From contig CAMBIK010000001.1 of the NCBI GenBank assembly GCA_945867435.1, forward strand, positions 1 to 51,530: a stretch of DNA of 51,530 nt, given 5' to 3'. Of the stretch, positions 30,214-51,530 are shown piece after piece. The DNA is from Klebsiella pneumoniae. Lineage in GTDB: Bacteria > Myxococcota_A > UBA796 > SXON01. The position numbers and the translations under genes are program-made. Below the pieces are notes generated by a model. It had not been told where the DNA came from. It ran no database searches and saw only the letters and a list, made by a program, of their open reading frames with translations. Each line of letters starts with the position of its first letter. Position 1 is the first letter of the stretch.

Positions 30214-31776
30214 TTCCGAACGGTGGCCGTTCTGATCATCAGAATTGCCACCGTTCTCCTTTTCTGACTTCGGCCATTGTGCCAATACATCGAAGGGTTT
30301 CCGGAAGGTCACCGAGAGCTGCCCATCGGTAAAAGTAGAGTTCAAGCAGAGCACTTCCAACAAACGGCGCTGTTGGAGGGGCTCCCGCGAAGAAAGTAGG
30401 TCGTAGGCGCGGTTCGCGAGTTCCAGCACCAAAATGGCCGTATCGAGGTTCTGCGAGCTGACGCGGGCGAGCCGCTGGATCTCCTCGGCGGCCTCGCCGC
30501 GCTGCTGTTCCCACTCGGCCCGCTTGGCGTTGAAGAAGTCGTTGTCGATGCGCCCTTCGAGCTTGTCCTCGTAGGCGGCGTTCACCAGCTTGCCGAGGCG
30601 GTCCATGCGGGCCGTGGCGGCGGCGACGCGGGCGGACACGTCCAGCTCGATCTCCTGCCGGGAGCCGGTGAGGGCCTTCTTGACGGCGGCGACCAGGTGC
30701 TCGGGCATCGTGAGGACCGAGACCTCGCGGAGCCACTGCGCCGACAGCTTGGCCTCGGGCATCATCCCGGTGCCGCAGTACCGGGCGCAGTGGTAGTAGA
30801 TGTACTTCTCCTTCTTGATCTGCGCGGTGATCGCGGCCCCGCAGTGCCCGCAGGTGATCATGCCGGTGTAGGCGAAGGTGAGTTCGCGGGCGCGCGTGTA
30901 GGGGTGCCCGTCAAGCCGAGCCTGCACGCGCTCGAAGACCTCCCAGCGGATGATCGCGGGGTCTTTCCCGGCGTAGACGGCTCCGCCCCAATGGAACTGC
31001 CCGGCGTACAGCGGGTTGCGGAGCAGCGAGTGGATCACGCTCTTGCCGAGGGTGCCGCCGTTGCGGCCCTTCAGACCCGCCTTCAGCGCGTAGGCGGCGA
31101 GCGTCTCGACACTGTGGTCCCCCCGGTCGTACAGCTCGAACAGGTTGCGGACGAGCAGGGCTTTCTCGGGGTCCACGACGAGCTGGCTCTTGCCGTTCTC
31201 GCGCCGGTTCAGGTAGCCGATGGGTGCGGCACCGGGGTAGTGCCCCTCCTCGCACTTCTGGACCATCCCCTTCTTGACCTCCTCCGAGAGATTGTCCACG
31301 TAGTTCTTGGCCATGAGCACTTTTATCCCGTGGATGAACTTCTCCGAGGACCGCGACTCGTCCGAGAGCACAATGCCCTCCTTGACGAAGTGGATGTCCA
31401 CCTTCATCTCGTCGAGAGCGACCCAATCCTTGAGGTTTCGGTAGAGTCGGTCGGTCTTTTCCACCAGGACGACCGGAGCCTTGACGCCCTTCTTCTTGAG
31501 CATCAGGAGCAGCCGCGTGAACGCGATCCGCCCGGTCTTCTTCGCCGTCTCCACGTCGATGAACTCCTCCAGAATGGCGAAGCCGTTGTCGGCGGCGTAC
31601 TTCTTGAGGATCGCCTGCTGTGCGGGGATGGAGAAGCCCTCGCGCTCCTGCTCGCGCGAGGACACGCGGGCGTAGAGGACCGCCTGCTTCATCGAGGGGG
31701 CCAGCGCGGCGGCGGCGGCCTTTGCGGCGGGTGATCGGCCCGGTCGGGCGGTTCGGCGGGTGGGCGAGATCGACAT
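30148..31776 (-). CDS. Large serine recombinase (integrase)
   Basis: 'AVLYARVSSREQEREGFSIPAQ' resolvase catalytic motif, recombinase domain, zinc ribbon 'CGHCGAAIT...YYHCARYC', and a coiled-coil C-terminus. Start 'MSISPT' at 31776, or 'MKQAV' at 31692. The last 22 codons are antisense to the tRNA. Confidence 0.9.
   Translation of the reverse strand: MSISPTRRTARPGRSPAAKAAAAALAPSMKQAVLYARVSSREQEREGFSIPAQQAILKKYAADNGFAILEEFIDVETAKKTGRIAFTRLLLMLKKKGVKAPVVLVEKTDRLYRNLKDWVALDEMKVDIHFVKEGIVLSDESRSSEKFIHGIKVLMAKNYVDNLSEEVKKGMVQKCEEGHYPGAAPIGYLNRRENGKSQLVVDPEKALLVRNLFELYDRGDHSVETLAAYALKAGLKGRNGGTLGKSVIHSLLRNPLYAGQFHWGGAVYAGKDPAIIRWEVFERVQARLDGHPYTRARELTFAYTGMITCGHCGAAITAQIKKEKYIYYHCARYCGTGMMPEAKLSAQWLREVSVLTMPEHLVAAVKKALTGSRQEIELDVSARVAAATARMDRLGKLVNAAYEDKLEGRIDNDFFNAKRAEWEQQRGEAAEEIQRLARVSSQNLDTAILVLELANRAYDLLSSREPLQQRRLLEVLCLNSTFTDGQLSVTFRKPFDVLAQWPKSEKENGGNSDDQNGHRSEWSGRQDSNLRLLGPKPSALPG
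30218..30256 (+). terminator. Stem-loop plus T-rich tract just 3' of tRNA-Pro (or recombinase att half-sites)
   Basis: 'GAACGGTGGC' (30218..30227) and 'GCCACCGTTC' (30247..30256) form a perfect 10-bp inverted repeat with a 19-nt spacer centred on TGATCA, followed by 'TCCTTTTCT'. Confidence 0.45.
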
Positions 31777-31947
31777 GGGGCTCCGGGGAGGGGTCAGCGG
31801 GGCCGGAGCTTGACGTAATTCCTGGCCGCCGTCCAGCCCAACCGCAGACGACCTGAACAGATGTAACGTGCTGCGGTTCGGCGCGTTATGGCGGGTGCCC
31901 TCGCGCGCGCCGTCCCGGCGTGCCCCCTCGTCCCGCCGGGATTTGCA

Positions 31948-34386
31948 ATGCCCACCTTCGCCGCCGATGATCCACTCGCCACCCCGCAGCGACTCGACGC
32001 TGAACCCGACCCCCACTTCTGGGAGGACGGGCTCGGGTTTCTTGGCTTCCGGCGTTCGATGAACGAGATCGCGCGGGCACCGGATGTGCTCTTCCACCGG
32101 CTTTTCGGGGACGGGGAAAACGCCGAGGCGGCCCGCGACGTGCTTCGTTCGTTCGGGGACTCCACTCCGGTGAGGGCGAACCTGATGTTGGCGGCGGCCT
32201 ACGTCGCGAAGATGGACACCCCCGCGATCGTTGACGCCGCGCGGATCGCGCTTGGCGAGGACGCGGTGGCGGAACCCGACTCGCCGGGCCGACGCGACCG
32301 TGGCGCGCTGGCGGCTCGAATCGCTGCGGCCAGTCTCGGGCACCTGTTCTCCGCCCGGGCGCTGGACGACTGGCGACTGCGGAAGCGTGTCACTATCCGG
32401 GCGACCGGTCAACATCGCGTTCTGACGGCCCCTATCCCGGATCTGCCCTGGCGGAAGTTGGCCGCCGAGGCGTTGCGGGCGATGGGCGCACAGCGGGGCA
32501 AGCTCGCTCTTCGCTCGGTGGTCGCCCGACCGTGGGCGGAGGACGTGCTCCTCGGGTTCCGTGACCGCGGCGGAGCGACGTCATCGCGGGACGACGATGA
32601 CCACTTTCAACCTGGGCACAAAGAGGATTGGGTCTACGTTCGCTTCTTCGAGAAGATGGACCGCGCCCACGTCTCGGCCTTCGACCCGGAGCGCGCGCGG
32701 GTGCTGGCGGGAAGGCTCGCAACGGCACTGTGGGACGCGACGGCGACCTACGAGTGGGCACGCGACCCGCTCACACCGGATCGGATGATGGAGTTCCACG
32801 ACCGGCTCGTCAACCCGTCGGACAAGACGTTCCGGCTCCTTGAGGTCGTCGCCGAGTTGCCGGGGCTGTGGCGTCGGCCTGTGCTGAAGCTCGGCAACCA
32901 CGGCCAGGAGCGCGTGGAGCCGGCGCTCGTGGAGCTGTGGTCCGCGAAAGTGGGGTTCGCGAGGGACTACGCGACCGTCCTCCGGGTGAAGATGGGGTTC
33001 AGCCACGCCGGCCACGTCTACCGGATCGAGCTTCACTACCCCGAGGATCCTTTCGCGTCGGAGCTTCCGCTGGCCTACACGTCGCGCGGCGTGAGCCCCG
33101 AGGTCGGGCAGGCCCTTCAGAGCCTGTTCGAGTCGGAGCTGGGTGTCTGCATCAACCCCCGCAGTCTCGGTGACGCGACCGGGCGCAGCTCGCCGTACGC
33201 CAAGCGCCCGTCGGAAATGGCCGAGCGGCACTGGACGCGCCTCCTCGGGAGCACGGTTGACAACCCGGCGAATTGGGAGTTGGACGAGCTGAAACGCCTC
33301 GCGACCCAAGGGCTCATCAGCATGGAGGAGCGAGCGGCGTTCCGGTGCGGGAGCCCCGCCATCCTGGCGCGGCCCGAGAATGCCCCGGAAGGATGCACCG
33401 GAGTCGTGGTCGGTGAGGTCGGCTCCGTTCGAGGGGGGGCACCCTTCGCGCAGCCGGCCGGACTCCGCCTCTCTTGCAGCCGCTGCTCTGCGATTTGGCC
33501 GTCCGACCAGGCGCACCTTCCCTGGTTTCACCAGATTGTCGTCCATGTGGATGAGCGTGCCGTCTGGCCCGTGGTCCGCGACGCCATCTTGCCCGGGATC
33601 GAGGGTGCGAACCGCCGGGTGCCGGGAGTTCTGGCGTGGCACGATGACGAGGGACAACCTTGCGTGGTGATCTCCGCGGACACCGCGCCCGAGGAATGGC
33701 GCGAGATCCGGCATGTGATCGGGAGACGGGCGGCGTGGATCACCACGGGCGCCGTGGCTGCGGCGCGCTACGGCGACAGGGGCGTCATGCTCGCACGCGC
33801 CCTCGCGAGCCCCGGCGGCGGCGCACTTCGCCGGGCGCTGGCCGCCGGCCCCGTTCCTGCGGACGCCGGAGCCGGCGGGGGGGCTGACATCTTACCCCCG
33901 CCACCCTACCTGCATCGTGGCACTCCGACGGGCTTGCCGGTCGTCCACATCCAGCGCGGCGACGACCGCGTGTACCTCGGCGATCAGGCGGTCGTAGAGG
34001 AGGACGAACATAGGTTGTTCCTATTCTTCGCCGTGCTCCAGTACGCGGAGGAGGCACGGGCGCGCGACCCAGCGGAGCCAGAGTACACCACGGGCGAGGT
34101 GCTCGCCGCCTATATCAACGACACGATCCGCGAGGTTCGGAGCGACCCCTCCATCGAAGGCGATGTCTCGGGGAGGAACATCCACGATTGGGTGGTGCGC
34201 GCGCGCAAGGTCATCGACGAACGCGCCAGACCGACGGATCAGGGGGCGTTGGTGATCGAATCGCCGGGCACCCAGCCGGGGTATCGCGTAGGACCGAGGT
34301 ACAAGTTGCAACATTTTTCGCTGCGTGACGAGGTGCGTCGGTACAAGGGTGCTCTCCGCGCCTCATCGAAGGGGTCGAAAAGGTAG
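31948..34386 (+). CDS. Large orphan protein (about 813 aa) with a winged-helix-like C-terminus
   Basis: Start 'MPTFAADDP'. No catalytic motif recognised. The C-terminal 'EYTTGEVLAAYIN...SGRNIHDWVVRARKVIDER...LVIESPGTQPGYRV' resembles the OmpR/PhoB-type wHTH layout. Confidence 0.6.
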   Translation: MPTFAADDPLATPQRLDAEPDPHFWEDGLGFLGFRRSMNEIARAPDVLFHRLFGDGENAEAARDVLRSFGDSTPVRANLMLAAAYVAKMDTPAIVDAARIALGEDAVAEPDSPGRRDRGALAARIAAASLGHLFSARALDDWRLRKRVTIRATGQHRVLTAPIPDLPWRKLAAEALRAMGAQRGKLALRSVVARPWAEDVLLGFRDRGGATSSRDDDDHFQPGHKEDWVYVRFFEKMDRAHVSAFDPERARVLAGRLATALWDATATYEWARDPLTPDRMMEFHDRLVNPSDKTFRLLEVVAELPGLWRRPVLKLGNHGQERVEPALVELWSAKVGFARDYATVLRVKMGFSHAGHVYRIELHYPEDPFASELPLAYTSRGVSPEVGQALQSLFESELGVCINPRSLGDATGRSSPYAKRPSEMAERHWTRLLGSTVDNPANWELDELKRLATQGLISMEERAAFRCGSPAILARPENAPEGCTGVVVGEVGSVRGGAPFAQPAGLRLSCSRCSAIWPSDQAHLPWFHQIVVHVDERAVWPVVRDAILPGIEGANRRVPGVLAWHDDEGQPCVVISADTAPEEWREIRHVIGRRAAWITTGAVAAARYGDRGVMLARALASPGGGALRRALAAGPVPADAGAGGGADILPPPPYLHRGTPTGLPVVHIQRGDDRVYLGDQAVVEEDEHRLFLFFAVLQYAEEARARDPAEPEYTTGEVLAAYINDTIREVRSDPSIEGDVSGRNIHDWVVRARKVIDERARPTDQGALVIESPGTQPGYRVGPRYKLQHFSLRDEVRRYKGALRASSKGSKR

Positions 34387-34493
34387 GGTCCACCGTGGCG
34401 CGGGTGCGCACTCCGGGCCGACGCGAGGGGCCCGGTGCGTTGACGCCCCGTTCCATACAAGGTGGCGTTTGATGGGCTGAATATCAGTGCGGC

Positions 34494-34697
34494 GTGAAGC
34501 GACGAACCGCACCGCTGTATGTCGAGGCTGACGCCAAGCAGGCGCTCCGCGAAGCGTTCCAGCCGTTGTACGACGAGCCGCTCACCGACCACCACGTCGG
34601 GGAGATCTCCGACAACCTCCGCCGCTACTTCGCGATCCTCGCGGAGTGGGATGCGGAGGACAAGCTGCGCGCCGTGGGCGCGAAGGCGGGACCATGA
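34494..34697 (+). CDS. Small hypothetical protein (67 aa)
   Basis: GTG start, balanced helical-looking sequence. Its stop overlaps the next ATG (ATGA). Confidence 0.4.
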   Translation: MKRRTAPLYVEADAKQALREAFQPLYDEPLTDHHVGEISDNLRRYFAILAEWDAEDKLRAVGAKAGP

Positions 34698-34894
34698 CGG
34701 AGACGAAGCCAGTGGCGTCCATTCGGGACGCCGCTCACGACGCGCGCGACGGCAAGGCCACGTCGCCGAAGGGTCCAGGGGCACCGATGCCCCGCCACCC
34801 CACGCGCCCACCGAAGCTGGACCGCCGGGGCCTGAACATTCACCAGACGCCACGGCGGCACGGCCCGGTGAGTCGCCGCCGAGGTCGGCGGTGA
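34694..34894 (+). CDS. Small basic hypothetical protein (66 aa), doubtful
   Basis: ATGA coupling upstream, and its TGA lies 2 nt before the next ATG. However, the sequence is Pro/Arg-rich and low-complexity. Confidence 0.3.
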   Translation: MTETKPVASIRDAAHDARDGKATSPKGPGAPMPRHPTRPPKLDRRGLNIHQTPRRHGPVSRRRGRR

Positions 34895-34896
34895 GG

Positions 34897-35781
34897 ATGT
34901 TCACGCTCACGGTCTTGCCTGCGCCGACGATCCGGCCGGGGGGGGATCCGAACGACGCCGCCAGCGTCGTCTGGCCTGCGGCGGGGGAAAGCAGGGCACT
35001 CGACGCGCGCGAGCTGGTCGCCTTCTTCCTCGTTCGACACCTCGCCCCGGGCAAGTTCGCCTGTCCGTACTTCCTCGTGGGCGCGTTTGCCGACGGCGTG
35101 CGGCGCAACTCGGCGTTCCTCTTTGCGTCGGTGGTCGCGCTCGACGTGGAGAAGGGGCCGACCACACAGGAGGCCCATGCGCTGTTCCGGGGCTGGGCGC
35201 ACATCGTCTACACCACCTGGTCCCATCGGGCCGACGCACACCGCTTTCGGGTCGTGTTCCCGCTCGCGCGCGACGTGAGCGCGGACGAGTACAAGCGGCT
35301 CTGGTCGCGACTGGCCGCCATGCTCGGCACCGGGGCGGACGCGCAGACGAAGGATCTCGCTCGCGCGCTGTTCCTACCAGCGCAGCGGCCGGACGGCGGA
35401 CGTTCGGCCGCGAAAGCATGGGAAGACGCACCTTTCCTCGACCCTGACGCGGTTCTGGCGGAAGTGCCGCCCTCGCCCCGACGGCCCCTCAGCCCGCCGC
35501 GTCCTCCTGTTCGCCTCCCGCCGGGGATCGCCCGGCGCGAGGCCCAGGAGCGCCTCAAGACCGATCCCGCGTGTCGGCGGCGCGCCGCCGAGTACCTCGA
35601 CGCCACGATCCGGGGCAACCGCGCCGAGGGGGTGCTCTGCCCACGATGCGAGCGCACGTCCGTCTGGTTCTGGATCGAGCCGGGGAGGATGAGCATCGCG
35701 AGCTGCAACCACCGGAACTCCTGCGGGTGGTGGGGCCACCTCGACGAGCTGCTCGACGCGCACGGGGGCAGCGATGTCTGA
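34897..35781 (+). CDS. AEP-type primase-polymerase-like protein with C-terminal zinc finger
   Basis: Motif order is 'VVALDVEKG' (acidic motif I), 'TTWSHRADAHRFRVVFPL' (His motif), 'DAQTKDLARALFLPA' (motif III-like), then 'CPRCERTS...CNHRNSC'. This is inference from motif layout only. GTG at 34891 is an alternative start. Confidence 0.5.
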   Translation: MFTLTVLPAPTIRPGGDPNDAASVVWPAAGESRALDARELVAFFLVRHLAPGKFACPYFLVGAFADGVRRNSAFLFASVVALDVEKGPTTQEAHALFRGWAHIVYTTWSHRADAHRFRVVFPLARDVSADEYKRLWSRLAAMLGTGADAQTKDLARALFLPAQRPDGGRSAAKAWEDAPFLDPDAVLAEVPPSPRRPLSPPRPPVRLPPGIARREAQERLKTDPACRRRAAEYLDATIRGNRAEGVLCPRCERTSVWFWIEPGRMSIASCNHRNSCGWWGHLDELLDAHGGSDV

Positions 35782-37936
35782 CTGGCAAGACGATGTCTGC
35801 GGCGTCAGCGAGGAGCCACCGCCCGATCCCGCCAAAGGGTGGGAGCTGCTGGCGCGACTCCGCGAGCTCGCGGGCGGCGACGGCGCGCCCGCCACGGTGA
35901 TCGAGGCGGTCCAGGTCGCGACGGCCGACCGCGCCACGGTCGCCGGGCTCGGTGCCTGCCACCGCGTGGAGCGGGCGCGGTTCGATGGGCTGACCCTTGC
36001 GCTGGGGAGTGTTCGCGGGCTGAAGGCAACCGCCGCCGTGCTCGCCCGCACGGCGAAAGAGGAGGGCGAGCGCCAGGAGAAGGCCGAGCGATCGACGCGC
36101 GCGCGCCGAGCCGCAGCACCCGCCAGCTCGAAGCTGGTCACGAGCCTGGAGCGGTGTCTGCGCGGCTACTCGCTCTCGACCGACCTTGTCGCACCCCCTG
36201 GCTACGACATCGACGATTGCGGAGTTCGCAAGCGCGTCGTCAACGAGGACACCGGCGAGGAGACGATCATCCCCGTCGCGGCCCGGCCGTTCGTCACCGT
36301 CGCCCGCTGCGTGAACATCCAGGACCACACCGTGGTCAGCCTGCTCGCGTGGCTGAAGGTCGGCGGCGGATGGGGCCAGCACACCGTTCCGCGCGTCACC
36401 GTCTCGGACGCTCGGGCGCTCGTCACGCTGGCGAACCTGGACGCGCCGGTCCACTCGAACAACGCCTCGGACTGCGTCACCTACATCGCAGCGTTTGAGG
36501 CGACCAACGCTGCCGTACTGCCGGAGGCGCTGGTCAGCCCGATCATGGGCTGGTGCGGCACCGATGCCGACCTGTCCTTCCTCTGGGGGCGGAACCAAGT
36601 CCGCGCGGACGGCGTCCACTCCAGCGGCTCCGTGGACGAGCTGCCGCCGTCTTCGTGGCGTGCCGGGCAGATCCACCTGCTGCCGAGCGACCCGGGCCTG
36701 CGCTCCGCCGCCGCCGGGTTCCACGCGGCGGGCTCGTGGGAGGGCTGGGTCGAGTGTGTCCGCGAGGTCACGCCCTACCCGCGCGTGATGCTCGCGATTT
36801 TCGCGGCGATGGTCCCGCCGCTCATGCGCTTCCTGCCCGCGTTGTCCAACTTCGTGCTGGACTTCAGCGGGGTCACCAGCCAGGGCAAGACGACGGCACT
36901 TCGCGCCGCCGCCTCGGTGTGGGGGAGCGCCGACGAGCGCGGCGACGGCATCCTGCACACCTGGGACAACACCCACGTCTTCGCCGAGCGCATCGCCGCC
37001 CTCTGCAACTACCTGCCTTTGTTCCTCGACGACACCAAGCGCGCGCGAAAGCGCGAGGACGTCGGCCGCGCCGTCTACAACCACGCGAGCGGCGTCGGCC
37101 GGGGGCGGGGCTCGCTCACGTCTGTCCAGCGGACGACGCGCACCCACAGCGTGCTGCTCTCCACAGGCGAGGAGGCGATCACGTCGTTCACCAACGACGG
37201 CGGCACCCGCGCCCGGTGCATCTGCCTCTGGGGGTCGCCGCTCGGCGGCGCGGACACCGCCACGGTCGAGGTGGTTCGGAGGCTCAACGCCGGGATCATG
37301 GCCCACTATGGGCACCTCGGCCCCACGCTCGTTCAGAAGCTCGCCAGCGACGCCGAGGGCCGGGATGATGTGCGCCGGGTCTACGAAACCGAGATGGAGG
37401 CGTGGACGAAGCTGGCCAACGGCAACGGGGTGGCGAGCCGCGCCGCCCAGTACGTCGCCGCGCTCGCCGTCGCCGAGCAGCTGTTCTACGCCATCACCGG
37501 GCTTCCCCGGCCGGCGACCCCGGCGGTCAACGAGGCGTGGGAGGCCGTACTGAAGGGGTCCGTCGAGGCCGACCGCGCCACGGACGCGCTCCGCCAGGTG
37601 ATTTCGTGGGCGACGGGCCAGCAGGCGCGTTTCCACGGGCGCATGGAGGCCGAGGGCACCGACTCGGGCTCGGCACCCGCCGCCGGCTGGCTTGGCGCGT
37701 GGACACGCGCAGAAAACTGGCGGTACCTCGCCGTGCTCCCGACCGAGCTGCGCGCGTTCCTCGAACGGCAGAAGTTCGACGCCGACGCCGCGCTCCGCAC
37801 CTGGGGCGACCGCGACTGGCTCCTCCGCGATGGGCGCCACCTGACTCGCAAAGTGACGATCGGTGAGCGAAAGGACCGTTGTATCTGCATCTCCCGCGAG
37901 GCGTGCGACACCGTCTCCGAGGCCGACGATGCGTAG
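35774..37936 (+). CDS. DUF927-type P-loop helicase/NTPase (replicative, SF3-like)
   Basis: 'FSGVTSQGKTTALRAAASVWGS...HTWDNTHVFAERIAALCNYLPLFLDDTKRA' gives Walker A and B with DUF927-like context. It overlaps the prim-pol stop by 8 nt. Confidence 0.75.
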   Translation: MSDWQDDVCGVSEEPPPDPAKGWELLARLRELAGGDGAPATVIEAVQVATADRATVAGLGACHRVERARFDGLTLALGSVRGLKATAAVLARTAKEEGERQEKAERSTRARRAAAPASSKLVTSLERCLRGYSLSTDLVAPPGYDIDDCGVRKRVVNEDTGEETIIPVAARPFVTVARCVNIQDHTVVSLLAWLKVGGGWGQHTVPRVTVSDARALVTLANLDAPVHSNNASDCVTYIAAFEATNAAVLPEALVSPIMGWCGTDADLSFLWGRNQVRADGVHSSGSVDELPPSSWRAGQIHLLPSDPGLRSAAAGFHAAGSWEGWVECVREVTPYPRVMLAIFAAMVPPLMRFLPALSNFVLDFSGVTSQGKTTALRAAASVWGSADERGDGILHTWDNTHVFAERIAALCNYLPLFLDDTKRARKREDVGRAVYNHASGVGRGRGSLTSVQRTTRTHSVLLSTGEEAITSFTNDGGTRARCICLWGSPLGGADTATVEVVRRLNAGIMAHYGHLGPTLVQKLASDAEGRDDVRRVYETEMEAWTKLANGNGVASRAAQYVAALAVAEQLFYAITGLPRPATPAVNEAWEAVLKGSVEADRATDALRQVISWATGQQARFHGRMEAEGTDSGSAPAAGWLGAWTRAENWRYLAVLPTELRAFLERQKFDADAALRTWGDRDWLLRDGRHLTRKVTIGERKDRCICISREACDTVSEADDA

Positions 37937-37946
37937 CGCGGCCCGA

Positions 37947-38239: not shown

Positions 38240-38307
38240 AGGCTCCGGCGGGCGCGTCGTCGCCCAGCGGTCCCCAACGTTGCTTCCCTGATCCCTCCGG
38301 AGCCTCC

Positions 38308-39341: not shown

Positions 39342-39546
39342 CCCGTGATGGCCCGGATTCCGGCTCGCGGTTTCAATCTCGGCATGGCGGAATCTGGAAT
39401 ATTCCATGGAATCACGCCTATGATTCCGTCATCGGCATCACCGATCCCGGAGCGATGGCATCGCTTGTCATCACCCCATCGGCGCCCGGCGCTCGTTGAG
39501 CGTTGAGCCCCCGCCTTTGGATGGCCGGTCGCCCAGGGCCAGGGGT

Positions 39547-42775: not shown

Positions 42776-42835
42776 TCGACTCCACCGCTTCCACCCTCAC
42801 CCCCGTTTCCCTGCTTCCACCAAAGGATGACTCCA

Positions 42836-43591: not shown

Positions 43592-43604
43592 TCGGGGGTG
43601 AGCC

Positions 43605-44243: not shown

Positions 44244-44261
44244 TTCCCGAGGACTCCCGCC

Positions 44262-44675: not shown

Positions 44676-44690
44676 TTCGGAGCCTTCGCC

Positions 44691-45275: not shown

Positions 45276-46090
45276 CCCCCTCCTCTCGCTTCATCCGCGC
45301 CCGCGTCGTGGACTTCTCCGGCCCCGACTTCGCGGGCGAGGTCGCCGGCCCCAAGAAGGTGTCCGCGAAGGAGCGCCAGATTCGGCGCAAGCTCCGTCGT
45401 GCCCGTGCGCTCAAGCGGCGCATCGCGCACCTCCGCATCCGGCACCCGCTCGGGTGGAAGGGAGCCGTCCGAAAGTCGAAGGAGAACCTCCGCATCGTGA
45501 TGAGCGATCTGCGCGCGTTGGGCTGGAAGCCCAAGAAGCCCAGCCGGCCGCGCAAGCCCGGCGAGGACGAGACGGACGCCGCGCTGGACGACATTCCGGA
45601 CGCCGAGCCGGGCGAGACCGAGGAGCCCGACGAGGGCATCGAGGACGCCCCGGAGCCGGCCGAGGACGAGACCGAAGGCAACTGGCTCGACGGCTACGTC
45701 GGGGCCGAGCCCGCGAAGAAGCGCCCCGTGCGCGACTTCTGGGAGAAGGCCGGGAAGTTCGTGGCCGCGAAGTGGGCGAAGGCGATCCCGCTCGGCTCCC
45801 GCGCGCAGATCCAGACCCGTCCCGGCCACCGGGCGATGATCGCGACCGTCGCGCCCGGCCTGTTCATCGTGCAGCTCGTGTCCGACGAGGCGGCGAAGAA
45901 GATCGCCGGGGACAACGTGGGCATCCTTCCGCTGCTCCTGTACCCGCTGGTGAAGAACCAGATCCAGAAGGCCCTGGCGCCGAAGCCCGCCGCCCCGGCG
46001 CAGCCTGCCCCGGTCGCCCAGCCCGCGCCCGCCCAACCCGCGCCCGCCCCGGTCGCAGCCGCTGGCTGTGACTGTCGGCCTCGGAGCTGA
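45272..46090 (+). CDS. Hypothetical protein (basic N-terminus, acidic linker, Pro/Ala-rich tail)
   Basis: ATGA overlap with the upstream stop. Only the last 272 codons of ORF 44573..46090 are used. Confidence 0.55.
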   Translation: MTPSSRFIRARVVDFSGPDFAGEVAGPKKVSAKERQIRRKLRRARALKRRIAHLRIRHPLGWKGAVRKSKENLRIVMSDLRALGWKPKKPSRPRKPGEDETDAALDDIPDAEPGETEEPDEGIEDAPEPAEDETEGNWLDGYVGAEPAKKRPVRDFWEKAGKFVAAKWAKAIPLGSRAQIQTRPGHRAMIATVAPGLFIVQLVSDEAAKKIAGDNVGILPLLLYPLVKNQIQKALAPKPAAPAQPAPVAQPAPAQPAPAPVAAAGCDCRPRS

Positions 46091-46092
46091 AC

Positions 46093-46749
46093 ATGGCCAC
46101 CACCCTCCCGATCAGCACCGATGCCGTCACCGAGCGCATCAACGCCATGCGGATCGCCGCCGAGTCCTCGCTCGCCAGCGTCGAAGCCTACGCCGTCACC
46201 AACGCGCAGGCGTTGGCGAAGGTCGTGGGGTCGTACCGGGCGATCCTGGCCGACACCGGCTCGCGCATCATCCGGGCCCAGGTCCGCGTCATCCAGGCAC
46301 GGGCCGCGAACCCGACCGACCCGACGCTCATCGCGCTCGAACGTCGCACCGTCGAGCTGCTCACGGCCTGGACCGCGCACGCCCAGGGCTACATGCCCTA
46401 CGAGCGTCCCGCGTCCGACGCCGAGAAGGGTACCGCCGTCGCCGTCGGGTGGGCGGGGATCGTCATCGCGCTGGCCGTCGCCGGGGCGGTGATCGCCGTC
46501 GCGTTCACCGGCGTCGCGTGGGCCGTCGTTCACTACAAGGAGGCGCAGACGCTCTCCGACGAGGTGGCCCTCGTCGAGAAGAACCCGTCCATCGCCGACC
46601 AGCTCGCGAAGGTCAACCAGACCTCGCCCAGCTCGGCACCGCCCGACCCCACCAATCCCGCCTCCGGCGGCGGCTGGGGCTGGTTTCTCGCCGCGCTCGG
46701 CATCGCCGGAGCCGCCATCTACATCGTCCCGAAGCTCGGGAAAGGGTGA
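46093..46749 (+). CDS. Membrane protein with two TM segments
   Basis: 'VAVGWAGIVIALAVAGAVIAVAFTGVAWAVV' and 'GWGWFLAALGIAGAAIYIV'. GGAG lies 8 nt upstream of the ATG. Confidence 0.6.
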   Translation: MATTLPISTDAVTERINAMRIAAESSLASVEAYAVTNAQALAKVVGSYRAILADTGSRIIRAQVRVIQARAANPTDPTLIALERRTVELLTAWTAHAQGYMPYERPASDAEKGTAVAVGWAGIVIALAVAGAVIAVAFTGVAWAVVHYKEAQTLSDEVALVEKNPSIADQLAKVNQTSPSSAPPDPTNPASGGGWGWFLAALGIAGAAIYIVPKLGKG

Positions 46750-46755
46750 TTCCTC

Positions 46756-48399
46756 ATGGAAAAGTTCCGCCTCAACATTGTCGGTGCCGACGAGGACGTG
46801 CCCCGCGTCATGCTGGCCTACGGCCACGGCTGCGGCGGCGAAGTCGCCTTCGTGATGCGCCCGCGCGACAACACCGCGCTGCTCATCCACCAGGTCAAGA
46901 AGCAGCCGGCGAAGGTGTGGCGGACGGACCTGGGGCTGGCCCCGTCGCACGCGCCCGAGCTGGACGCCGCCCCGGCCGATGCCGTCGCGGAGATCCGCCG
47001 GATGAAGTCGAACCCGCCTCCGGCCGGGCCGGCGACGCTGCGCGGGACGTGGAAGGGGACGCTGTTCTGCACCGATGGGAAGCCCTCTGTGCGCCTCGAA
47101 CGCCGGGTGGCATCCTACGGCACCCTACACCTCGCATCGACGCCTGATGGCCGCTGGACGGCCACCTTCGAGCGGGCGCAGAAGTGGTTCTCGCAGGCGA
47201 AGCAGGAGGCGGTCACCCGCTCCTCGCTCACCGAGGCGATCACCACCGGGATGGGCCTCGTCGTCGGGCTCGTCAGCGAGGCGTGCTCCTTCCGCGACAC
47301 GCACCGCCGCAACACCGTCGATCCGGAATTCGCGGCGCAGTACCCCCCGCGCGCTCGGCCCGATCCCCGCGATCCCACCGACCGCTACAAGGGCAAGTCG
47401 AGCTTCCGCGCCATCGAAGGGGCGGACGGCTGGGTCGTCGTCAACGACGTGGGCGCGGTCGTGGCCAAGTTCGGGCTGCGCGAGAAGGGCAAGGCCGAGA
47501 AGCACGCCAGCGCACTCACGCGCGGGCAGGCTCCCGCCGCGACGGTTTCGCCGGACATCGCCAGCGGCTTCGGGCTCACCGGGATGCCCGGCATCCAGGT
47601 CGCCCCGACGCTCGCTGAGATCCCGATGCCGGAGAGCCCGTCGTGTCCCACGTCGGTCGCCAACATCGCGGCGTCCACCGAGAAGGAAGCGCAGGCCCTC
47701 GAAGGCTACGCGGACTCGCTGTGGGGCACCACCGAGGTGCCCGAGCTGCTCACGCGGGCGGCGAACCTGCTCCGTCACGCCGAGGCGCTCGTCAAGTCCC
47801 CGCTTTGTTCCGGCAAGGAGCAGAAGATGGCGTGGGAGGACCTGCGGCGGGGTGCCGACGCCTACACCCAGGCGCGTGACGCCTTCGTGCGCGGTGAGAA
47901 GCCCGACATCGTGAGCACGCTGCGGCGCATCTCCGAGCGCGTGTCGCTCGCGGCGGCGCGGGCGGCGAAGTCGTGCGCGGCCGGGCAGCAGAAGATCACG
48001 AACGCGCCCCGTTCGTCCAACGACATCGCCACCGGCATCGGCCGGCGCGAGTCGGGCTGGACCTGGGGCGACCGGGTGACCTGGCAGGGGCAGTTCTGGA
48101 TCGTGCAGGACGTTCGTGCCGACGGCTCGGTGAACATCCTGCGCGAAGGCACCGACCTCGCGGACACGGCACCGGCTTCCCAGCTCCGTGCCGCTCCCGC
48201 TCCGGGTCGGCCGACCGTGGCGATGCAGCCCGTGTGGCCGCCCGCTGCGGCCCCGATGAACGTGCCGACGACCCCGAAGGCAACGCGCACGCGCAAGCCG
48301 AAGGCCGCCGACGTGGACCCGGCGAAGGACCAGCTCCTCGTCAACGCTTTCGCCGACGCCATCAAGCAGGCCGCGCAGTCGATGGGAGGTGGGGCGTGA
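46756..48399 (+). CDS. Hypothetical protein (547 aa)
   Basis: Longest ORF of the rightward block. Small SH3/KOW-like stretch 'GDRVTWQGQFWIVQDVRADGSVNILREG'. No NTPase motif. Confidence 0.6.
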   Translation: MEKFRLNIVGADEDVPRVMLAYGHGCGGEVAFVMRPRDNTALLIHQVKKQPAKVWRTDLGLAPSHAPELDAAPADAVAEIRRMKSNPPPAGPATLRGTWKGTLFCTDGKPSVRLERRVASYGTLHLASTPDGRWTATFERAQKWFSQAKQEAVTRSSLTEAITTGMGLVVGLVSEACSFRDTHRRNTVDPEFAAQYPPRARPDPRDPTDRYKGKSSFRAIEGADGWVVVNDVGAVVAKFGLREKGKAEKHASALTRGQAPAATVSPDIASGFGLTGMPGIQVAPTLAEIPMPESPSCPTSVANIAASTEKEAQALEGYADSLWGTTEVPELLTRAANLLRHAEALVKSPLCSGKEQKMAWEDLRRGADAYTQARDAFVRGEKPDIVSTLRRISERVSLAAARAAKSCAAGQQKITNAPRSSNDIATGIGRRESGWTWGDRVTWQGQFWIVQDVRADGSVNILREGTDLADTAPASQLRAAPAPGRPTVAMQPVWPPAAAPMNVPTTPKATRTRKPKAADVDPAKDQLLVNAFADAIKQAAQSMGGGA

Positions 48400-48674
48400 G
48401 TCGGGCCTTTCTCTGGCTCGGCCCGGCGCTCCTGCTCGTGTCCTGCGTGGCGCGGGCGTTCGCTGCGGACCCCGATCCTGGGGCCGTGGCGGCCCCGCCA
48501 AGCGCGATCTCCATGCCGATGCCGGGTGGCGACTACCTGCTCTCGCTCGGGCCCTACGGGGCGCTTGTGTGGGGCGCTTATCTGCTCGGGAAGGGGGTGA
48601 AGGTCACCGTCCAGATCGAGCTGTCCGACCGCGACCGCGAGATCATCGAGAAGCTCGGCAAGGGGGCAGTATGA
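48396..48674 (+). CDS. Small secreted/membrane protein (92 aa)
   Basis: GTGA overlap. Signal 'FLWLGPALLLVSCVARAFA' plus 'GALVWGAYLLG'. Confidence 0.5.
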   Translation: MSRAFLWLGPALLLVSCVARAFAADPDPGAVAAPPSAISMPMPGGDYLLSLGPYGALVWGAYLLGKGVKVTVQIELSDRDREIIEKLGKGAV

Positions 48675-48967
48675 ACGTCGAGCTTCACGCGGACACCTCC
48701 GCTCGCGCGCCCTTCGTGGTGCGTCGTGACGACGTGCTTGCACCCTCGGATCGGCCTGTCTGCGATGCCGCGGTGACCTCCGACGGCCGCACCACGGAAG
48801 GCGCCGCGCTCTCCTTCCCGGCGTCCGAACCCGCATCCCGCCCGGTGCTCCCGTGGTGGCTCTGGCGTGTGGTCGTCGCCTGGGGCGCGCTCACGCTCGC
48901 CTCGCTCGTCGGCCCCTGCCGCCCACTTTCCCCGGCGCCGGCGTTGGCCGCGGAAGCATCCCCATGA
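48671..48967 (+). CDS. Small membrane protein (98 aa)
   Basis: ATGA overlap. TM segment 'VLPWWLWRVVVAWGALTLASLVG'. Confidence 0.45.
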   Translation: MNVELHADTSARAPFVVRRDDVLAPSDRPVCDAAVTSDGRTTEGAALSFPASEPASRPVLPWWLWRVVVAWGALTLASLVGPCRPLSPAPALAAEASP

Positions 48968-49019: not shown

Positions 49020-49286
49020 TCAACGCCGTTGGCGCGCCGTGATCGCCGCCGCCACCTTGTCGGCTGCCCGCGCGGCCCCGCTCGGGTCCACGACGACCAA
49101 CTCGACGTGCCCGCAGGCCACACACATCGCCGCGTTCAGTGGCCAATGTTTGGGTTCTCCGGTGAAACCCATCTCCCCGCCGAGGAACAGTCCAATCGTC
49201 GTGGTTTGTCCTTCCGTTCTGCCGAGTGCGAACACTCGCAATTCGGCAGACCCGCATCGCTGGCAGCTTCGATCAGCATCCGGCAT
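49020..49286 (-). CDS. Small zinc-ribbon protein (88 aa), antisense to the operon direction
   Basis: 'MPDADRSCQRCGSAEL...NAAMCVACGHVEL' has two CxxCG-x-x-EL knuckles about 45 residues apart. GAGG lies 7 nt upstream of the ATG. It competes with plus-strand shadow ORF 48964..49392, which shares the same third-codon positions. Confidence 0.5.
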   Translation of the reverse strand: MPDADRSCQRCGSAELRVFALGRTEGQTTTIGLFLGGEMGFTGEPKHWPLNAAMCVACGHVELVVVDPSGAARAADKVAAAITARQRR

Positions 49287-49388
49287 CAGTGAACCTCGCG
49301 TGCTTCGTGCTCGTCCTATCTCGACCCAGCCGGAGGCGTCCGCCGTCGGCTCCCACTCCAGCCGCCGTTCCGCCCAGGGAGGCTCCCC

Positions 49389-51530
49389 ATGAACGCCGCC
49401 GCACAGCTCCTCGACGCCGTCGTCCCCATCGTCCGCACCCGCCTCCCACGCGGCGTGGACATCGACTACCTCGACGATTTCGTGGACCGCAACCGGTCGA
49501 TGCTCGAACTCGTCATCGAGCAGAACCTCGGCCCGATCCTTCGCAAGATGGAGGCGGCGAACAACGCCCGCTTCCCCGTCGAGGACATCCCCGAGTTCTG
49601 GACGGCCTCGAAGCGGACCGCGGCGAACGTGGCCGCGATGGCGACTGCGGCGAACCTCTACGCCCAGAAGCGCGCCCCGAACCCCGACGAGCGCACGGTC
49701 CTCGCCGGGTACTCCGGCTGGGGCGGGCTCTCCATCGAACATGCCGCCGGCAAGTTTCCTCCCGGCTTTCCCCAGCCTGAAAGCCGAGGACTCATTCACG
49801 AGTTCTATACGCCGAGCAAGGTGGCGAAGGAAGTCGCCCGGCTCGTCGCCCCACTCGTTCCGAGCCTCCCGCATGACGGCCCGACCGTCCACGCCCTGGA
49901 GCCGTCGGCGGGCATCGGCCGCTTCCTCCGGGCGTTCGAGCCGGTGCCGGGCATCACCTGGCACGCCGTCGAGTGGTCGGAACTGTCGGCGCGGATGCTC
50001 CACGTTCTGCGCCCCGATGTGGACCTCATGCTCGCCCCGTTCGAGCGGTGGGTCCGCGAGAAGGGTGCCGCGGCGTCCGGTCGGCTCGGGCTGGTCGTCT
50101 CCAACCCGCCCTACGGCATCCGCGGGGCGTCCATCGCCGAAGATCCGGATCGGGTCTACCGCGAAAAGATGGCCTACCACTACTTTCTCCGCCGGGGACT
50201 GGATCTGCTTGCGCCGGATGGGCTCGGCGTGTTCCTGGTCCCCGGCGGCTTTCTGACCTCGCGGACGGCGCAGTTCGTCGCGCTCCGCGAGAAGGTGCTC
50301 AAGCGGCACCACCTGGCCGCCGCGTACCGGCTCCCGTCGATCAACGAGAAGCGCCGCGAGGCGATCTTCCCCGGCGCGATGCTGGTGACGGACCTCCTGT
50401 TCTTCCGCGCGCGTGGCGGTGAGCTGGACGCCTTCGACGCCGCCGACGAGGGCATCGTCGCGGGCGGCTACTTCAAGGAGTACCCCCGGCACATTCTCGG
50501 CCGCGAAGTCGGCGACGACCACGGCGAGGACGATCAGACCTCGAAGCCCCGCTGGGGCTACCAGGTGCAGGGCGAGTTCACGCGGCTCCCCGACCTTGTG
50601 GAACGCCCGATCTGCGGCGACTGCAAGATCCTCGCCTTCCCCGGCGCGAAGCAGCTTGCCGACGGGGCCGCAGCCGGAGGGCGGGTCGGCGTCACTCGCG
50701 TCACCGAGGCCGAGGTCACCGACCTCCCGCGCGAGCTCGCGTCCGCGGTCCTGCTCGGGCTCCGCGTGGACAAGTACCTCGCGCTGGTCGCCGCCGAGAA
50801 CGCCGAGGAGCCGCAGATGCTCTGGCCGGAGCTGTTCGAGGGGCTGACCGCCTGGCACACGACCAACGGCAACCCGCACGCGCTCATCGAGCTGGTGAAG
50901 CTCGCGCGCGCCGGGAACACCGGGGCAGAGCGTTTCCTCTCCGCGTTCGACCGGGCCGGGCACCTGATCGACGGGCTCCGTCGCAAGCCGCCCGCCATCG
51001 AGCCCCGGTTCACCGGCCGATCCGACGACGTGGTGGCGCAGGCCGAGCACCTCTACCGGCACGCCCGCGCGCTCTCGCTCCGCGAGCTGCTCGACTACCA
51101 CGCGGGCCTCGGCGGGCCGTTCACGCCCGACCAGGTGCGTGCGAAGGTGCTCGCGGGGGGCTGGTGCCTCGACGGCGACACGTTCACCGAGCTGTTCCCC
51201 GCCGAGGTGTACCTCTCCGGGTCGCTCTGGCCGAAGATGGACCGGGCGATGGTGCGTCCCGACGACGCCCAGGCGAAGGCCCAGGTCGCGCGGCTGCTCG
51301 ACGTGATCAAGCCCGCGATCTTCGACGACATCGAGGGTGTTTCCGCCCGCCAGGGCTGGCTCCCGCTCGACCTCGTGGCCCAGTGGGTGAACGCCACCTA
51401 CACCGGGTACGACGACGTGGAGTTCGTCCGTCAGGGCGGGCTTCTCGCCCCGAAGGGCTGGCAGTACGACCAGATGTCGAAGAAGGAGAACGCCGGGGAC
51501 ATGCACCCCGAGGTGCTGCTCATCCTCGGC
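49389..51530 (+). CDS. N6-adenine DNA methyltransferase domain protein, 5'-partial view of a large multidomain gene
   Basis: My own translation, because the ORF is open to the window edge and is absent from the track. 'YSGWGGLS', 'FYTPSKVAKEV', 'LEPSAGIGRFL' (motif I), 'VVSNPPYG' (motif IV). 'GGGAGG' lies 7 nt upstream of the ATG. 714 codons with no stop. Confidence 0.85.
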   Translation, partial: MNAAAQLLDAVVPIVRTRLPRGVDIDYLDDFVDRNRSMLELVIEQNLGPILRKMEAANNARFPVEDIPEFWTASKRTAANVAAMATAANLYAQKRAPNPDERTVLAGYSGWGGLSIEHAAGKFPPGFPQPESRGLIHEFYTPSKVAKEVARLVAPLVPSLPHDGPTVHALEPSAGIGRFLRAFEPVPGITWHAVEWSELSARMLHVLRPDVDLMLAPFERWVREKGAAASGRLGLVVSNPPYGIRGASIAEDPDRVYREKMAYHYFLRRGLDLLAPDGLGVFLVPGGFLTSRTAQFVALREKVLKRHHLAAAYRLPSINEKRREAIFPGAMLVTDLLFFRARGGELDAFDAADEGIVAGGYFKEYPRHILGREVGDDHGEDDQTSKPRWGYQVQGEFTRLPDLVERPICGDCKILAFPGAKQLADGAAAGGRVGVTRVTEAEVTDLPRELASAVLLGLRVDKYLALVAAENAEEPQMLWPELFEGLTAWHTTNGNPHALIELVKLARAGNTGAERFLSAFDRAGHLIDGLRRKPPAIEPRFTGRSDDVVAQAEHLYRHARALSLRELLDYHAGLGGPFTPDQVRAKVLAGGWCLDGDTFTELFPAEVYLSGSLWPKMDRAMVRPDDAQAKAQVARLLDVIKPAIFDDIEGVSARQGWLPLDLVAQWVNATYTGYDDVEFVRQGGLLAPKGWQYDQMSKKENAGDMHPEVLLILG

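Follow-up and report, generated by a model that had tools for sequence, protein, structure and literature searches.

What kind of element occupies the 21.3 kb that follow a tRNA-Pro gene in contig CAMBIK010000001.1 (GenBank assembly GCA_945867435.1, deposited as Klebsiella pneumoniae, GTDB lineage Myxococcota_A)? The window, i.e. the whole stretch of 51,530 nt that was analysed, has a GC content of ~65-72%, and its genes were called from codon-position GC (Table 1). A first-pass annotation, made from the letters alone, had described the region as an integrated element with a replication module of satellite or plasmid type, and had offered two identities for it, a new type of mobile element or a provirus with unfamiliar morphogenesis genes. 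Comparison with ~120 related loci shows that the region is a real integrated mobile element in which two modules are joined: an integration/replication module (block A, 30214-39546) and a widespread conserved gene block (block B or the core, 39547 onward). It is mobile, as had been proposed, but composite, as the recombinase-replication part is also found without the orphan block. On the best explanation, a modular element of roughly 30 kb is integrated at tRNA-Pro and its left two-thirds lie in the window; it runs well past the window end, which cuts its gene g21. As for its nature, we tentatively favour, at a little under an even chance, the reading that block B is the dissemination module of a temperate, probably tailless, membrane-containing virus-like element whose morphogenesis genes are of a new kind, and that A and B form one modular element. 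Of the two identities offered at first, the provirus is the likelier, because relatives add to the core a lysis cassette, a C5 DNA methylase, an Hsp90-like protein with an HExxH motif and a small serine recombinase.

The core is recognised by its conservation. Blastn homology between the window and 20 related loci starts within a few bases of 39547, the stop codon of g08, and never extends further left. A scan of GTDB species genomes retrieved 62 loci in 29 assemblies, mostly metagenome-assembled genomes (MAGs) from lakes, mostly labelled Myxococcota and uncultured, and metagenomes, scanned with the next large gene after g21 as seed, added 46 more loci with conserved gene order; the family is found in lake, marine and sludge metagenomes. 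The order is invariant: a leftward operon g10, g09, g08, which may be followed by an XRE-type helix-turn-helix (HTH) gene, diverges from a rightward series g11, g12, g13, g14, g15, g16, g17, g18, g18b. Clustering of the open reading frames (ORFs) over all loci places variable small membrane genes after g18b, then g21, and the span from g08 to the small serine recombinase amounts to ~20-22 kb. The cargo that had seemed oversized for a satellite turns out to be a conserved unit in its own right, and more than 100 loci have it. Synteny of the core genes at one locus, which by the first-pass annotation would have counted against an element, is not seen: copies lie at different places with unrelated flanks, often several per MAG (10 diverged loci in Umea1p3_bin-980, 3-4 in several others, two on one contig in MAG.506).

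Block A belongs to a different family, defined by the contexts of the relatives of g02 (related loci are designated by L numbers, protein families found in them by K numbers). Its backbone consists of a leftward large serine recombinase (LSR) and, rightward, g02, a small ORF, a Bro-like gene in part of the family, primase/helicase genes and an oligonucleotide-binding (OB) fold or TubC_N protein; the primase/helicase part alternates between prim-pol with DUF927, prim-pol with VapE, and D5_N. The backbone is present in L113-L122, and wherever the sequence of a locus extends to that side, the recombinase gene borders directly on tRNA-Pro. Its cargo consists of BREX genes in L114 and of an SNF2/DEAD helicase with an SMC-like ATPase in L117, with no core within 10 kb in either case. 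On contig NODE_1580 (L115/L092) the backbone is followed by restriction-modification genes and then by the core, with the small-recombinase end proximal; the two cases seen, the window and NODE_1580, have the core in opposite orientations with respect to block A. Block A is a separable integration-replication module, and block B a separable conserved core.

The flanks of the core are equally diverse. To the left of g08 stand a D5_N primase-helicase module (L002/L123), repressor/ImmA-like genes (other loci) or, directly, host genes encoding a TolC-like protein (L027/L032) or a Ser/Thr kinase (L048). The D5 primase of L123 has a 676-aa protein encoded upstream of it, which was considered as a g02 homologue and rejected. 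Beyond the small recombinase, host genes (adenylate cyclase, ABC transporter) are met within ~3 kb in L083; elsewhere there are type I/III restriction-modification genes, or leftward replication genes, Bro-N and a g02 homologue. None of the sampled loci spans the whole core together with both flanks. Replication modules of three types adjoin the core, on either side, in at least 8 loci (window, L002/L123, L020, L061, L074, L077, L082, L092), and the core encodes no replication protein; for these two reasons a single modular genome is favoured.

It is less likely, but quite possible, that two elements lie in tandem, i.e. that a self-contained replicative island at tRNA-Pro sits beside, or parasitises, an independent core moved by its own small recombinase or helped to move. 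Such an arrangement would suit a block A that carries BREX or helicase/SMC-like genes in place of a core, the exact end of homology at the g08 stop codon, the opposite orientations, and the cores that abut host genes directly on either side. It would also suit the recombinase-bearing insertions that repeatedly cut g21 (codon ~137) and K4 (codon ~315-356), and the tRNA-like remnant that follows the small recombinase gene in L082. Conversely, the abutment of three types of replication module fits a shared modular genome that needs a replicon, as does a core without a replication protein of its own, and the junction at 39342-39546 shows neither a tRNA repeat nor another att site that could be detected.

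Everything beyond residue 714 of g21, including the lysis cassette, is off-window and known from relatives. There, full g21 is 1700-1746 aa long (the closest full-length relative is 89% identical) and combines an Eco57I-type methylase with an SNF2-rel_dom/ResIII/Helicase_C helicase; an N6-adenine methylase fused to an SWI2/SNF2 helicase in one polypeptide is what defines a DarB-like protein, the helicase part being seen here in relatives. In tblastn searches g21 was 23-30% identical to tailed-phage proteins that carry the annotation of DarB-like antirestriction protein. The giant methyltransferase that had been noted at the right edge does continue off the window but, being found in 65 loci, is an obligatory member of the conserved unit and not an incidental neighbour. 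The cell-wall hydrolase that follows g21 is interchangeable, being either K11 (lysozyme/GH46-like; L018/L067) or K16 (Peptidase_M15_3, 6e-21; PHROG endolysin, 2.7e-28; L092/L098/L102/L106). Both carry Gly/Ala-rich N-terminal membrane anchors, reminiscent of signal-arrest-release endolysins. In a third subgroup (L057/L061/L066), K21, an Amidase_3 protein (PHROG endolysin, 7e-10), is encoded next to g08. Small coiled-coil/transmembrane proteins are also found after g21, and one of them, K20, lies beside the hydrolase and is weakly holin-like (8e-4). Judged by these matches, relatives appear to possess a phage-type lysis cassette, i.e. an endolysin with an adjacent small membrane protein, in which the holin assignment is weak. 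The remaining genes encode K10, a C5 DNA methylase; K4 (830-920 aa), with an HtpG/Hsp90-like GHKL ATPase domain, HtpG-type matches among PDB sequences and an HExxH motif near its C-terminus; and, at the core end, a small serine recombinase of the resolvase/invertase type (~210 aa, 9e-48). XRE repressor, ImmA-like and Bro-N genes are present in relatives as well.

This gene content bears on the simplest alternative, an ordinary tailed prophage or integrative and conjugative element (ICE) whose structural or transfer genes lie past the window end. The window does end inside g21, with about one third of the element off-window. However, in relatives g21 is followed by the hydrolase, small genes, the C5 methylase, K4 and the small recombinase, and then by host genes (L083) or restriction-modification and replication genes, while the opposite end abuts host genes in L027/L032 and L048. 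Host genes near either core end in some loci leave no room for a hidden tailed-phage or type IV secretion module, and because relatives show them near both ends, this alternative is very unlikely and receives almost no weight from us. In keeping with this, no terminase, portal, HK97 capsid or tail family was matched by Pfam or PHROG sequence profiles in window ORFs or in the conserved and flanking ORFs of relatives, and no Pfam relaxase, coupling protein, VirB4/FtsK-type translocase or type IV secretion family in the window or in the conserved regions of relatives. The identities of standard tailed prophage (hallmark genes missing from the window and from the conserved part of ~120 loci) and of ICE (no transfer-gene families) were rejected. 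The absence of virion, conjugation and defence genes had been noted at first sight, and it holds for the window by Pfam, PHROGs and PADLOC, except that the methyltransferase is a DarB-like anti-restriction protein; the conserved gene set indeed matches no tailed-phage, ICE or defence module.

An unexpected link between the large enzymes of the core lies in their termini. A module of ~45 residues, with the consensus ..LLDAAVAAVRARLPAGVDPAYLDGFLARNRPAL.., forms the N-terminus of g21 (residues 1-48); by blastp, these ~48 residues and the C-terminal ~48 of K4 are homologous (8e-10 to 4e-5). The same peptide stands C-terminally in 7 of the 36 K10 methylases and N-terminally in a 413-aa protein of L071. 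We know of no description of a 45-residue terminal peptide common to three or four enzymes. Its distribution suggests a common loading or docking signal, with the enzymes perhaps co-delivered with DNA. The loading-signal reading rests on two precedents, namely that DarB is a structural component of the P1 head and that 'polyvalent' proteins of the methylase-SNF2 type, which frequently include an HExxH peptidase domain, are believed to accompany the DNA that phages or conjugative elements deliver (PMC5512222). Like the Dar system of phage P1 and the polyvalent escort proteins of phages and conjugative elements, the core has a methylase-SNF2 dyad of ~1700 aa and a second large protein with HExxH, both at the end of a presumed late operon. 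Unlike the P1 Dar system, it has no P1-type head or tail genes, the partner K4 contains the Hsp90/HtpG-like GHKL ATPase domain, and three to four enzymes have the terminal peptide in common.

The proteins encoded by the left part of the core are orphans. The 21.3 kb as a whole had no megablast match among phages and plasmids, and g08-g19 gave nothing beyond chance in Pfam, PHROGs and PADLOC. The all-beta protein g13 has 113 homologue clusters, and an alignment-seeded repeat search returned the same 113. Its AlphaFold2 (AF2) model (mean predicted local distance difference test score, pLDDT, 85.7) was matched by Foldseek to tandem CUB domains, PBSX XepA, the jelly rolls of meprin and SIDT, and PirA toxin, and in BFVD to tail-fibre and carbohydrate-binding jelly rolls. 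The match to the double-jelly-roll capsid of phiCjT23 (7zzz_A; E 1e-3, prob 0.98, template modelling (TM) score ~0.3) ranks below CUB and XepA; every two-domain match has a TM score <0.45, so that only the fold class is fixed thereby. On the strength of this model, g13 is a candidate capsid or binding protein. For g18, the largest core orphan, 109 homologue clusters were found, all from MAGs or metagenomes, those with names being Myxococcota or mislabelled 'proteobacteria'; its AF2 model (pLDDT 82.7) had no significant fold match in the PDB, and its sequence had none in plasmids or IMG/VR. The most conserved core protein, g15 (52-98% identity across loci), shows in its family alignment an invariant EDCD...YHC...DDPSARLGM, a pattern resembling a Cys-His-Asp triad and suggesting a thiol peptidase or a transglutaminase-like enzyme; it has no match in the PDB or, by tblastn, in the phage and plasmid collections. 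Membrane proteins are numerous (g17, g18b, g19 and the variable K17, probably also the Gly/Ala-rich g11 and the hydrophobic-tailed g16), and Arg-rich segments are found in g11, g12 and g16. PDB sequence profiles of g08, g10, g12, g14 and g15 gave low-complexity or chance matches only, except at the C-terminus of g10, and local hhalign detected no internal paralogy in the g08, g10, g12, g13 and g14 families.

Small beta proteins accompanied by many small membrane proteins are reminiscent of the modules of PRD1, PM2 and FLiP-type phages. The virus-like reading of the core is built on this mix of beta-sandwich and membrane proteins, on the interchangeable phage-type endolysins, on the repressor/ImmA/Bro regulators and on the divergent early/late layout. 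As in PRD1, PM2, FLiP and phiCjT23, small beta-sandwich proteins, many small membrane proteins and a cell-wall hydrolase are encoded together in a compact co-directional module; membrane-containing tailless phages, too, have temperate relatives that integrate, and the fold-level matches of g13 include the phiCjT23 capsid. Unlike those phages, the core has no FtsK/HerA ATPase, the 8+6 strands of g13 match a capsid with a TM score of only ~0.3, the genome would be 2-3 times larger, and there is no sequence similarity. FLiP-type phages, to our knowledge, are likewise without a recognisable packaging ATPase. With Caudoviricetes the element shares repressor/ImmA regulators, Bro-N, the divergent early/late layout, an anchored endolysin with a holin-like gene, methylases and site-specific recombinases; it differs from them in the lack of terminase, portal, HK97 capsid and tail genes described above.

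We infer particle formation, enzyme co-delivery and the movement of A and B as one unit, and the life cycle of such an element would run as follows. The tRNA-Pro-specific LSR would integrate and excise it; on the excised DNA the DUF927/Cch-type helicase would load at the iterons (37948-38238), the prim-pol would prime replication and the OB-fold protein would coat single-stranded DNA (ssDNA), after which re-integration at tRNA-Pro would follow. The divergent control region would switch between the leftward early or regulatory operon (g10-g08, often ending in an XRE-type repressor) and the long rightward operon. The latter would first provide particle components, namely three beta-sandwich proteins including g13, Arg-rich proteins, at least 5 small membrane proteins, the Cys-His-Asp enzyme and g18. 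Next would come escort enzymes that blunt restriction in the next host (DarB-like methylase-helicase, C5 methylase, Hsp90-like ATPase with HExxH), and last a membrane-anchored endolysin and holin-like protein for release, with the small serine recombinase. That the core specifies the virion of an unrecognised lineage of temperate, tailless, membrane-containing viruses of uncultured Myxococcota, with morphogenesis proteins that lack detectable relatives, without a packaging motor of the FtsK/HerA or terminase type and with its enzymes loaded via the shared peptide, is a more specific claim that we regard as doubtful.

Several observations weigh against a virus-like core. The strand pattern of g13 is 8+6 and not 8+8, and many of its matches are non-viral, CUB- or lectin-like. 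No packaging ATPase or P-loop protein is encoded in the core: its proteins contain no Walker A motif and match no FtsK/HerA or other ATPase family in Pfam or PHROGs. The g18 model has no fold counterpart in the PDB, and predicted structures, those of g13 and g18, cover two of ~13 core proteins. Family members number 0 in 2.9 million IMG/VR contigs (searched with g13, g18 and alignments of g18 and K4) and in 50,697 phage records, and a literature search on Myxococcota tailless proviruses yielded nothing relevant. The lysis cassette and the greater part of g21 are seen in relatives only, and the occurrence of block A without B, like the opposite orientation of B relative to A in the two cases seen, counts on the same side.

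Membrane-anchored cell-wall hydrolases, moreover, are known in Gram-positive conjugative elements, and delivered methylase-helicases, too, are found in conjugative elements. The core might then be a device for non-viral DNA transfer by an unrecognised conjugation-like or vesicle route, its membrane proteins and hydrolase forming a channel or bud and its enzymes being exported via the common signal peptide. The many small membrane proteins, the lipoprotein-like g18b and the absence of the family from virus collections would agree with this, as would the methylase-SNF2/HExxH polyvalent proteins, typical of conjugative elements as well as of phages (PMC5512222). We nevertheless consider such a route unlikely: a relaxase, a coupling protein, VirB4 and an FtsK-like translocase are absent from all of ~120 loci, the families matched by the hydrolases are those of phage endolysins, with a holin-like gene next to them, and the regulatory set is of the repressor/ImmA/Bro type.

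Still other functions come to mind, given that a role in a virion or in transfer has been demonstrated for none of the core proteins. The core could be cargo, a multi-copy accessory cluster carried on various backbones and encoding an envelope or surface structure, a toxin delivery or predation apparatus, or an unrecognised defence/anti-defence island. The best fold matches of g13 are extracellular CUB/lectin-type sandwiches and PirA toxin, secreted cell-wall hydrolases suit predatory myxobacteria, and restriction-modification and BREX genes travel in the same neighbourhoods. However, a strict 20-kb order, a regulator and recombinase of its own, many diverged copies and a DarB-type protein fit a selfish replicator better, and anti-restriction enzymes are useful only to DNA that enters a new cell. 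PADLOC gave generic helicase/methylase matches for g21 and K10 only, and none for K4, g02, g06, g07, g08, g10, g15 or g18; a known defence island was rejected on the lack of any PADLOC system match. We hold the cargo reading to be decidedly unlikely.

Returning to block A, which supplies the integration and replication functions of the proposed modular element, g01 has the full LSR domain set (Pfam PF00239 Resolvase, 3.6e-22; PF07508 Recombinase, 2.7e-12; PF13408 Zn_ribbon_recom, 1.2e-6), and homologues with 41-59% identity occupy the same position in L113-L122. All seven of seven loci show the LSR/g02 backbone at tRNA-Pro followed by a similar hairpin, the anticodon of the tRNA being TGG, CGG or GGG. 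In each of them (window, 30148-30260; L114, ~7332-7480; L115, ~4620-4770; L117; L118; L120; L121) the LSR ORF runs antisense across the GC-rich hairpin into tRNA-Pro, and in g01 the final ~22 codons are tRNA-encoded. While the element is integrated, its recombinase thus ends in a tail encoded by the host; upon excision the C-terminus would be a different one, which could act as an integration-dependent switch. A search of the window and relatives for a repeat of the tRNA/attL region that would mark attR found none, as is expected for a serine recombinase. The orphan g02 adjoins the recombinase throughout L113-L122, yields 54 representative clusters only in an exhaustive HMMER search of 1.84 billion proteins, and has no match in Pfam, PHROG, PADLOC or, by single-sequence search, the PDB.

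The replication genes follow. The small ORF g03 is 39% identical to ORFs at the equivalent position in L114 and L120. The prim-pol g04 matches PHROG 9765 (DNA primase, 3.1e-25) and PHROG 256 (9.8e-17) and is 37% identical to the gene upstream of the VapE-like helicase in L117-L119. The helicase g05 (Pfam DUF927, 1e-30; HTH_56, 5.5e-7; PHROG 8841 primase/helicase, 3.6e-84) has the sole Walker A motif among the window proteins of the element and is presumed, from its domains, to be a self-loading replication initiator. Directly downstream of its gene, before g06, 9 of the 11 window copies of GTGGGGAY are concentrated in the iteron cluster, the other 2 being scattered over the remaining 51 kb; in L082 a stretch 69% similar to this region adjoins a g05-like helicase. 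Homologues of g06 come after the helicase in L117-L119 and on the P0224 contig, and no homologue of g07 was found beside the core in relatives.

The layout of integrase, primase/helicase and adjacent origin, remarked on in the first-pass annotation, is truly that of staphylococcal cassette chromosome (SCC) elements, Staphylococcus aureus pathogenicity islands (SaPIs) and satellites. In SaPI and SCC replication modules, a self-loading initiator helicase recognises, through its C-terminal domain, iterons that follow its gene directly, and is accompanied by a primase encoded next to it and by a small protein that binds ssDNA; SCC alternates DUF927 (Cch) and D5_N-type (Cch2) helicases, in patterns 1 and 2, and uses large serine recombinases (PMC7581432). 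Block A resembles SCC in its LSR for chromosomal integration, both SCC and SaPI in its Cch-type DUF927 helicase with C-terminal HTH, the primase gene directly upstream, the OB protein and the iterons directly downstream, and SCC patterns 1 and 2 in that its relatives swap DUF927 for D5_N (or VapE) helicases. It differs from SCC in its target (tRNA-Pro and not rlmH/orfX), in its single recombinase in place of CcrAB and in its archaeo-eukaryotic prim-pol in place of the A-family CCPol-MP, and from both SCC and SaPI in the constant ~800-aa partner g02, the Myxococcota-like hosts and the junction to a conserved 20-kb block. Because target site, recombinase number and primase type differ, and helper-exploitation genes are absent, block A is not a member of the SCC or SaPI family. 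With P4 it shares an integrase, a primase-helicase and an origin at a tRNA gene; unlike P4, its integrase is of the serine type, there are no psu/sid/delta/epsilon-type genes, and the cargo is a conserved 20-kb unit. Unlike phage-inducible chromosomal islands (PICIs), it has no capsid-redirection or small-terminase genes, and no terminase or capsid-remodelling family was matched in the window. The P4/PICI identity suggested at first was rejected: the integrase is a serine and not a tyrosine enzyme, and genes for helper exploitation are lacking.

Table 1. Coordinates of features in the window and positions of the shared terminal peptide in related loci
Feature	Position	Strand	Basis or remark
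Ordinary chromosomal genes	left of 30.1 kb		Lon protease, Ser/Thr kinase with AAA_16/TPR domains, acyl-CoA thioesterase, MaoC dehydratase
tRNA-Pro(TGG), integration target	30137-30213	+	ARAGORN
Nested palindrome GAACGGTGGC...GCCACCGTTC, presumed attL region	30214-30260		the sequence itself
g01, large serine recombinase	30148-31776	-	Pfam Resolvase, Recombinase, Zn_ribbon_recom
g02, 812-aa orphan	31948-34386	+	constant divergent partner of the recombinase in the backbone family
g03, 67-aa small ORF	34494-34697	+	coding-frame signal
g04, prim-pol (archaeo-eukaryotic-type primase), Cys-rich C-terminus	34897-35781	+	PHROG
g05, DUF927 helicase with C-terminal Cch-type HTH	35774-37936	+	Pfam, PHROG
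Iteron cluster, putative origin	37948-38238	.	GTGGGGAY in both orientations, flanking a 55% GC stretch
g06, OB-fold (tRNA_anti-like), candidate ssDNA-binding protein	38308-38796	+	Pfam PF12869, 3.7e-10
g07, 169 aa, CxxC...H...C motif	38832-39341	+	PHROG 27072 (unknown function), 7.6e-7
Junction of block A and conserved core	39342-39546	.	short inverted repeats
Leftward operon g10-g09-g08 (341, 179, 162 aa)	39547-41630	-	g09, g10 acidic
Divergent control region	41631-42124	.	CTACCGC five times on one strand, other short direct repeats
g11, Gly/Ala-rich, probably membrane-associated, Arg-rich tail	42125-42775	+	conserved in 38 loci; no family match
g12, D/E-Leu-Gly acidic repeats, basic coiled coil, C-terminal beta domain	42827-43591	+	conserved in 41 loci
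g13, all-beta, conserved basic N-terminal arm, then 8- and 6-stranded beta-sandwich	43605-44243	+	AF2
g14, small beta-rich, 137 aa	44262-44675	+	conserved in 45 loci; no PDB profile match
g15, most conserved core protein	44691-45275	+	52-98% identity across loci
g16 (basic, acidic, then hydrophobic Pro/Ala-rich tail) and g17 (coiled coil, two transmembrane segments)	45272-46749	+	
g18, largest core orphan, 547 aa	46756-48399	+	N-terminal beta domains, helical bundle, small beta-barrel (AF2)
g18b (92 aa, signal/lipobox-like LLLVSC and second hydrophobic segment) and g19 (98 aa, C-terminal transmembrane segment)	48396-48967	+	
g20, antisense CxxC...CxxC ORF, 87 aa, doubtful significance	49020-49283	-	variable spacer before g21
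g21, N-terminal 714 aa of ~1730-aa DarB-like protein	49389-51530	+	Eco57I-type N6-methylase part in window
Shared peptide, g21	49389-49530		N-terminus
Shared peptide, K4	L074:12640-12823, L083:6900-7095		C-terminus
Shared peptide, K10	L037:20280-20428		C-terminus
Shared peptide, 413-aa protein	L071:8497-8640		N-terminus

Nearly every item of the initial gene inventory was found at, or within a few bases of, its reported position. The 813-aa orphan is 812 aa long; the prim-pol-like gene, the DUF927 helicase and the iteron region are all present (PHROG, Pfam, motif counts), as are the OB-fold-like protein and the Cys-motif protein, with four Cys. Of the two tiny ORFs, that at 34494-34697 is solid, but the one at 34694-34894 has a weak coding signal only. 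The leftward trio, said to be acidic throughout, has two acidic members (isoelectric points 4.3 and 4.6) and a third at 6.1. The repeat-rich control region put at about 490 bp measures 494 bp, and the block of about ten rightward, translationally coupled orphans comprises eleven genes (42125-48967), with four junctions overlapping by 4 nt; g18b, found in 41 loci, and g19 were called on the Logan contig. The small antisense zinc-ribbon gene (g20) exists as an ORF and has no homologue in related loci.

Some features of the left half of the core deserve mention. The g10-g08 operon is conserved in 28 loci and has no Pfam or PHROG match. Residues 286-325 of g10 (window 41464-41580 region) match the PDB 'CAP repeat' protein 8vd6 (5e-7) and also weakly resemble STI1 DP-type helices, which hints at a chaperone or peptide-binding repeat. 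In the control region, CTACCGC clusters at 41734-41889; among relatives it recurs, 3-4 times, only in the nearest (L002/L013/L017), which also have no XRE-type gene after g08, and this suggests that the repeats are operator sites specific to the subgroup.

Traces of recombination are found in several copies. Other LSR insertions cut g21 at aa 136-138 (L005, L007, L009, L010, L021, L039, L049, L062) and K4 at aa ~313-356 (L098, L102, L105, L041), the recombinase ORF again crossing the junction. Insertion at fixed codons implies that other mobile elements use g21 and K4 as attachment sites, and this may be one reason for the many nested or fragmented copies per MAG. In L082 (~12880-12925, minus strand), ~100 nt after the small serine recombinase gene, lies a tRNA-like T-arm with acceptor remnant, GCGGGTTCGACTCCCGCCGCCGCA, not called as a tRNA by ARAGORN and possibly the scar of a former attachment site at the right end of the core. 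No shared direct or inverted motifs, as an invertible segment would have, were found at the two core ends. In L052 (1-10000), g18, g18b and g21 are preceded by three paralogous proteins of 366-750 aa instead of g11-g17, so that the right arm of the core may recombine onto other left arms; a full tRNA-like T-arm is also present there at ~6655. Compared with window 43300-47625, L038 (CAIXRH010000287.1, MAG LJ-7-9m_bin-1278) encodes identical proteins (100%) over g12-g15 and the first 290 residues of g18, but identity falls to 92% in g16 and to 74% in g17; such a mosaic suggests that copies have recombined recently. The two MAG.506 copies (L057, L066; ~17705-19225) have an extra beta-rich protein of 506 aa between the hydrolase and the C5 methylase, without sequence match in Pfam, PHROG or the PDB; it ends in HxH repeats, AHTHTFTGIAHSHPVTDPQHQHLG, presumably a motif of the kind associated with metal-binding phage fibre tips. 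Finally, the N-terminal fragment of an IS3-type transposase (HTH_Tnp_1, HTH_21; 29374-29724) just upstream of tRNA-Pro indicates that the tRNA locus has been struck by other mobile DNA too.

Almost nothing is known of the mobile elements and viruses of uncultured Myxococcota, and the core family, at more than 100 loci, is nonetheless absent from the collections searched. The most conservative reading of our data is that replicative islands in the style of SCC and SaPI exist far outside Firmicutes, as interchangeable backbones for BREX, restriction-modification genes and this core. The tRNA-Pro-specific serine recombinases, and those that cut g21 and K4 at fixed codons, are candidate new tools for site-specific integration, and the terminal peptide that three enzymes have in common may be a signal for protein loading, which lends itself to a direct test. 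A core that served as a virion or transfer machine would amount to a new way of moving ~30 kb of DNA between cells and would be a new source of capsid-like or membrane-remodelling proteins; should it prove to form particles, it would define a new virus lineage.

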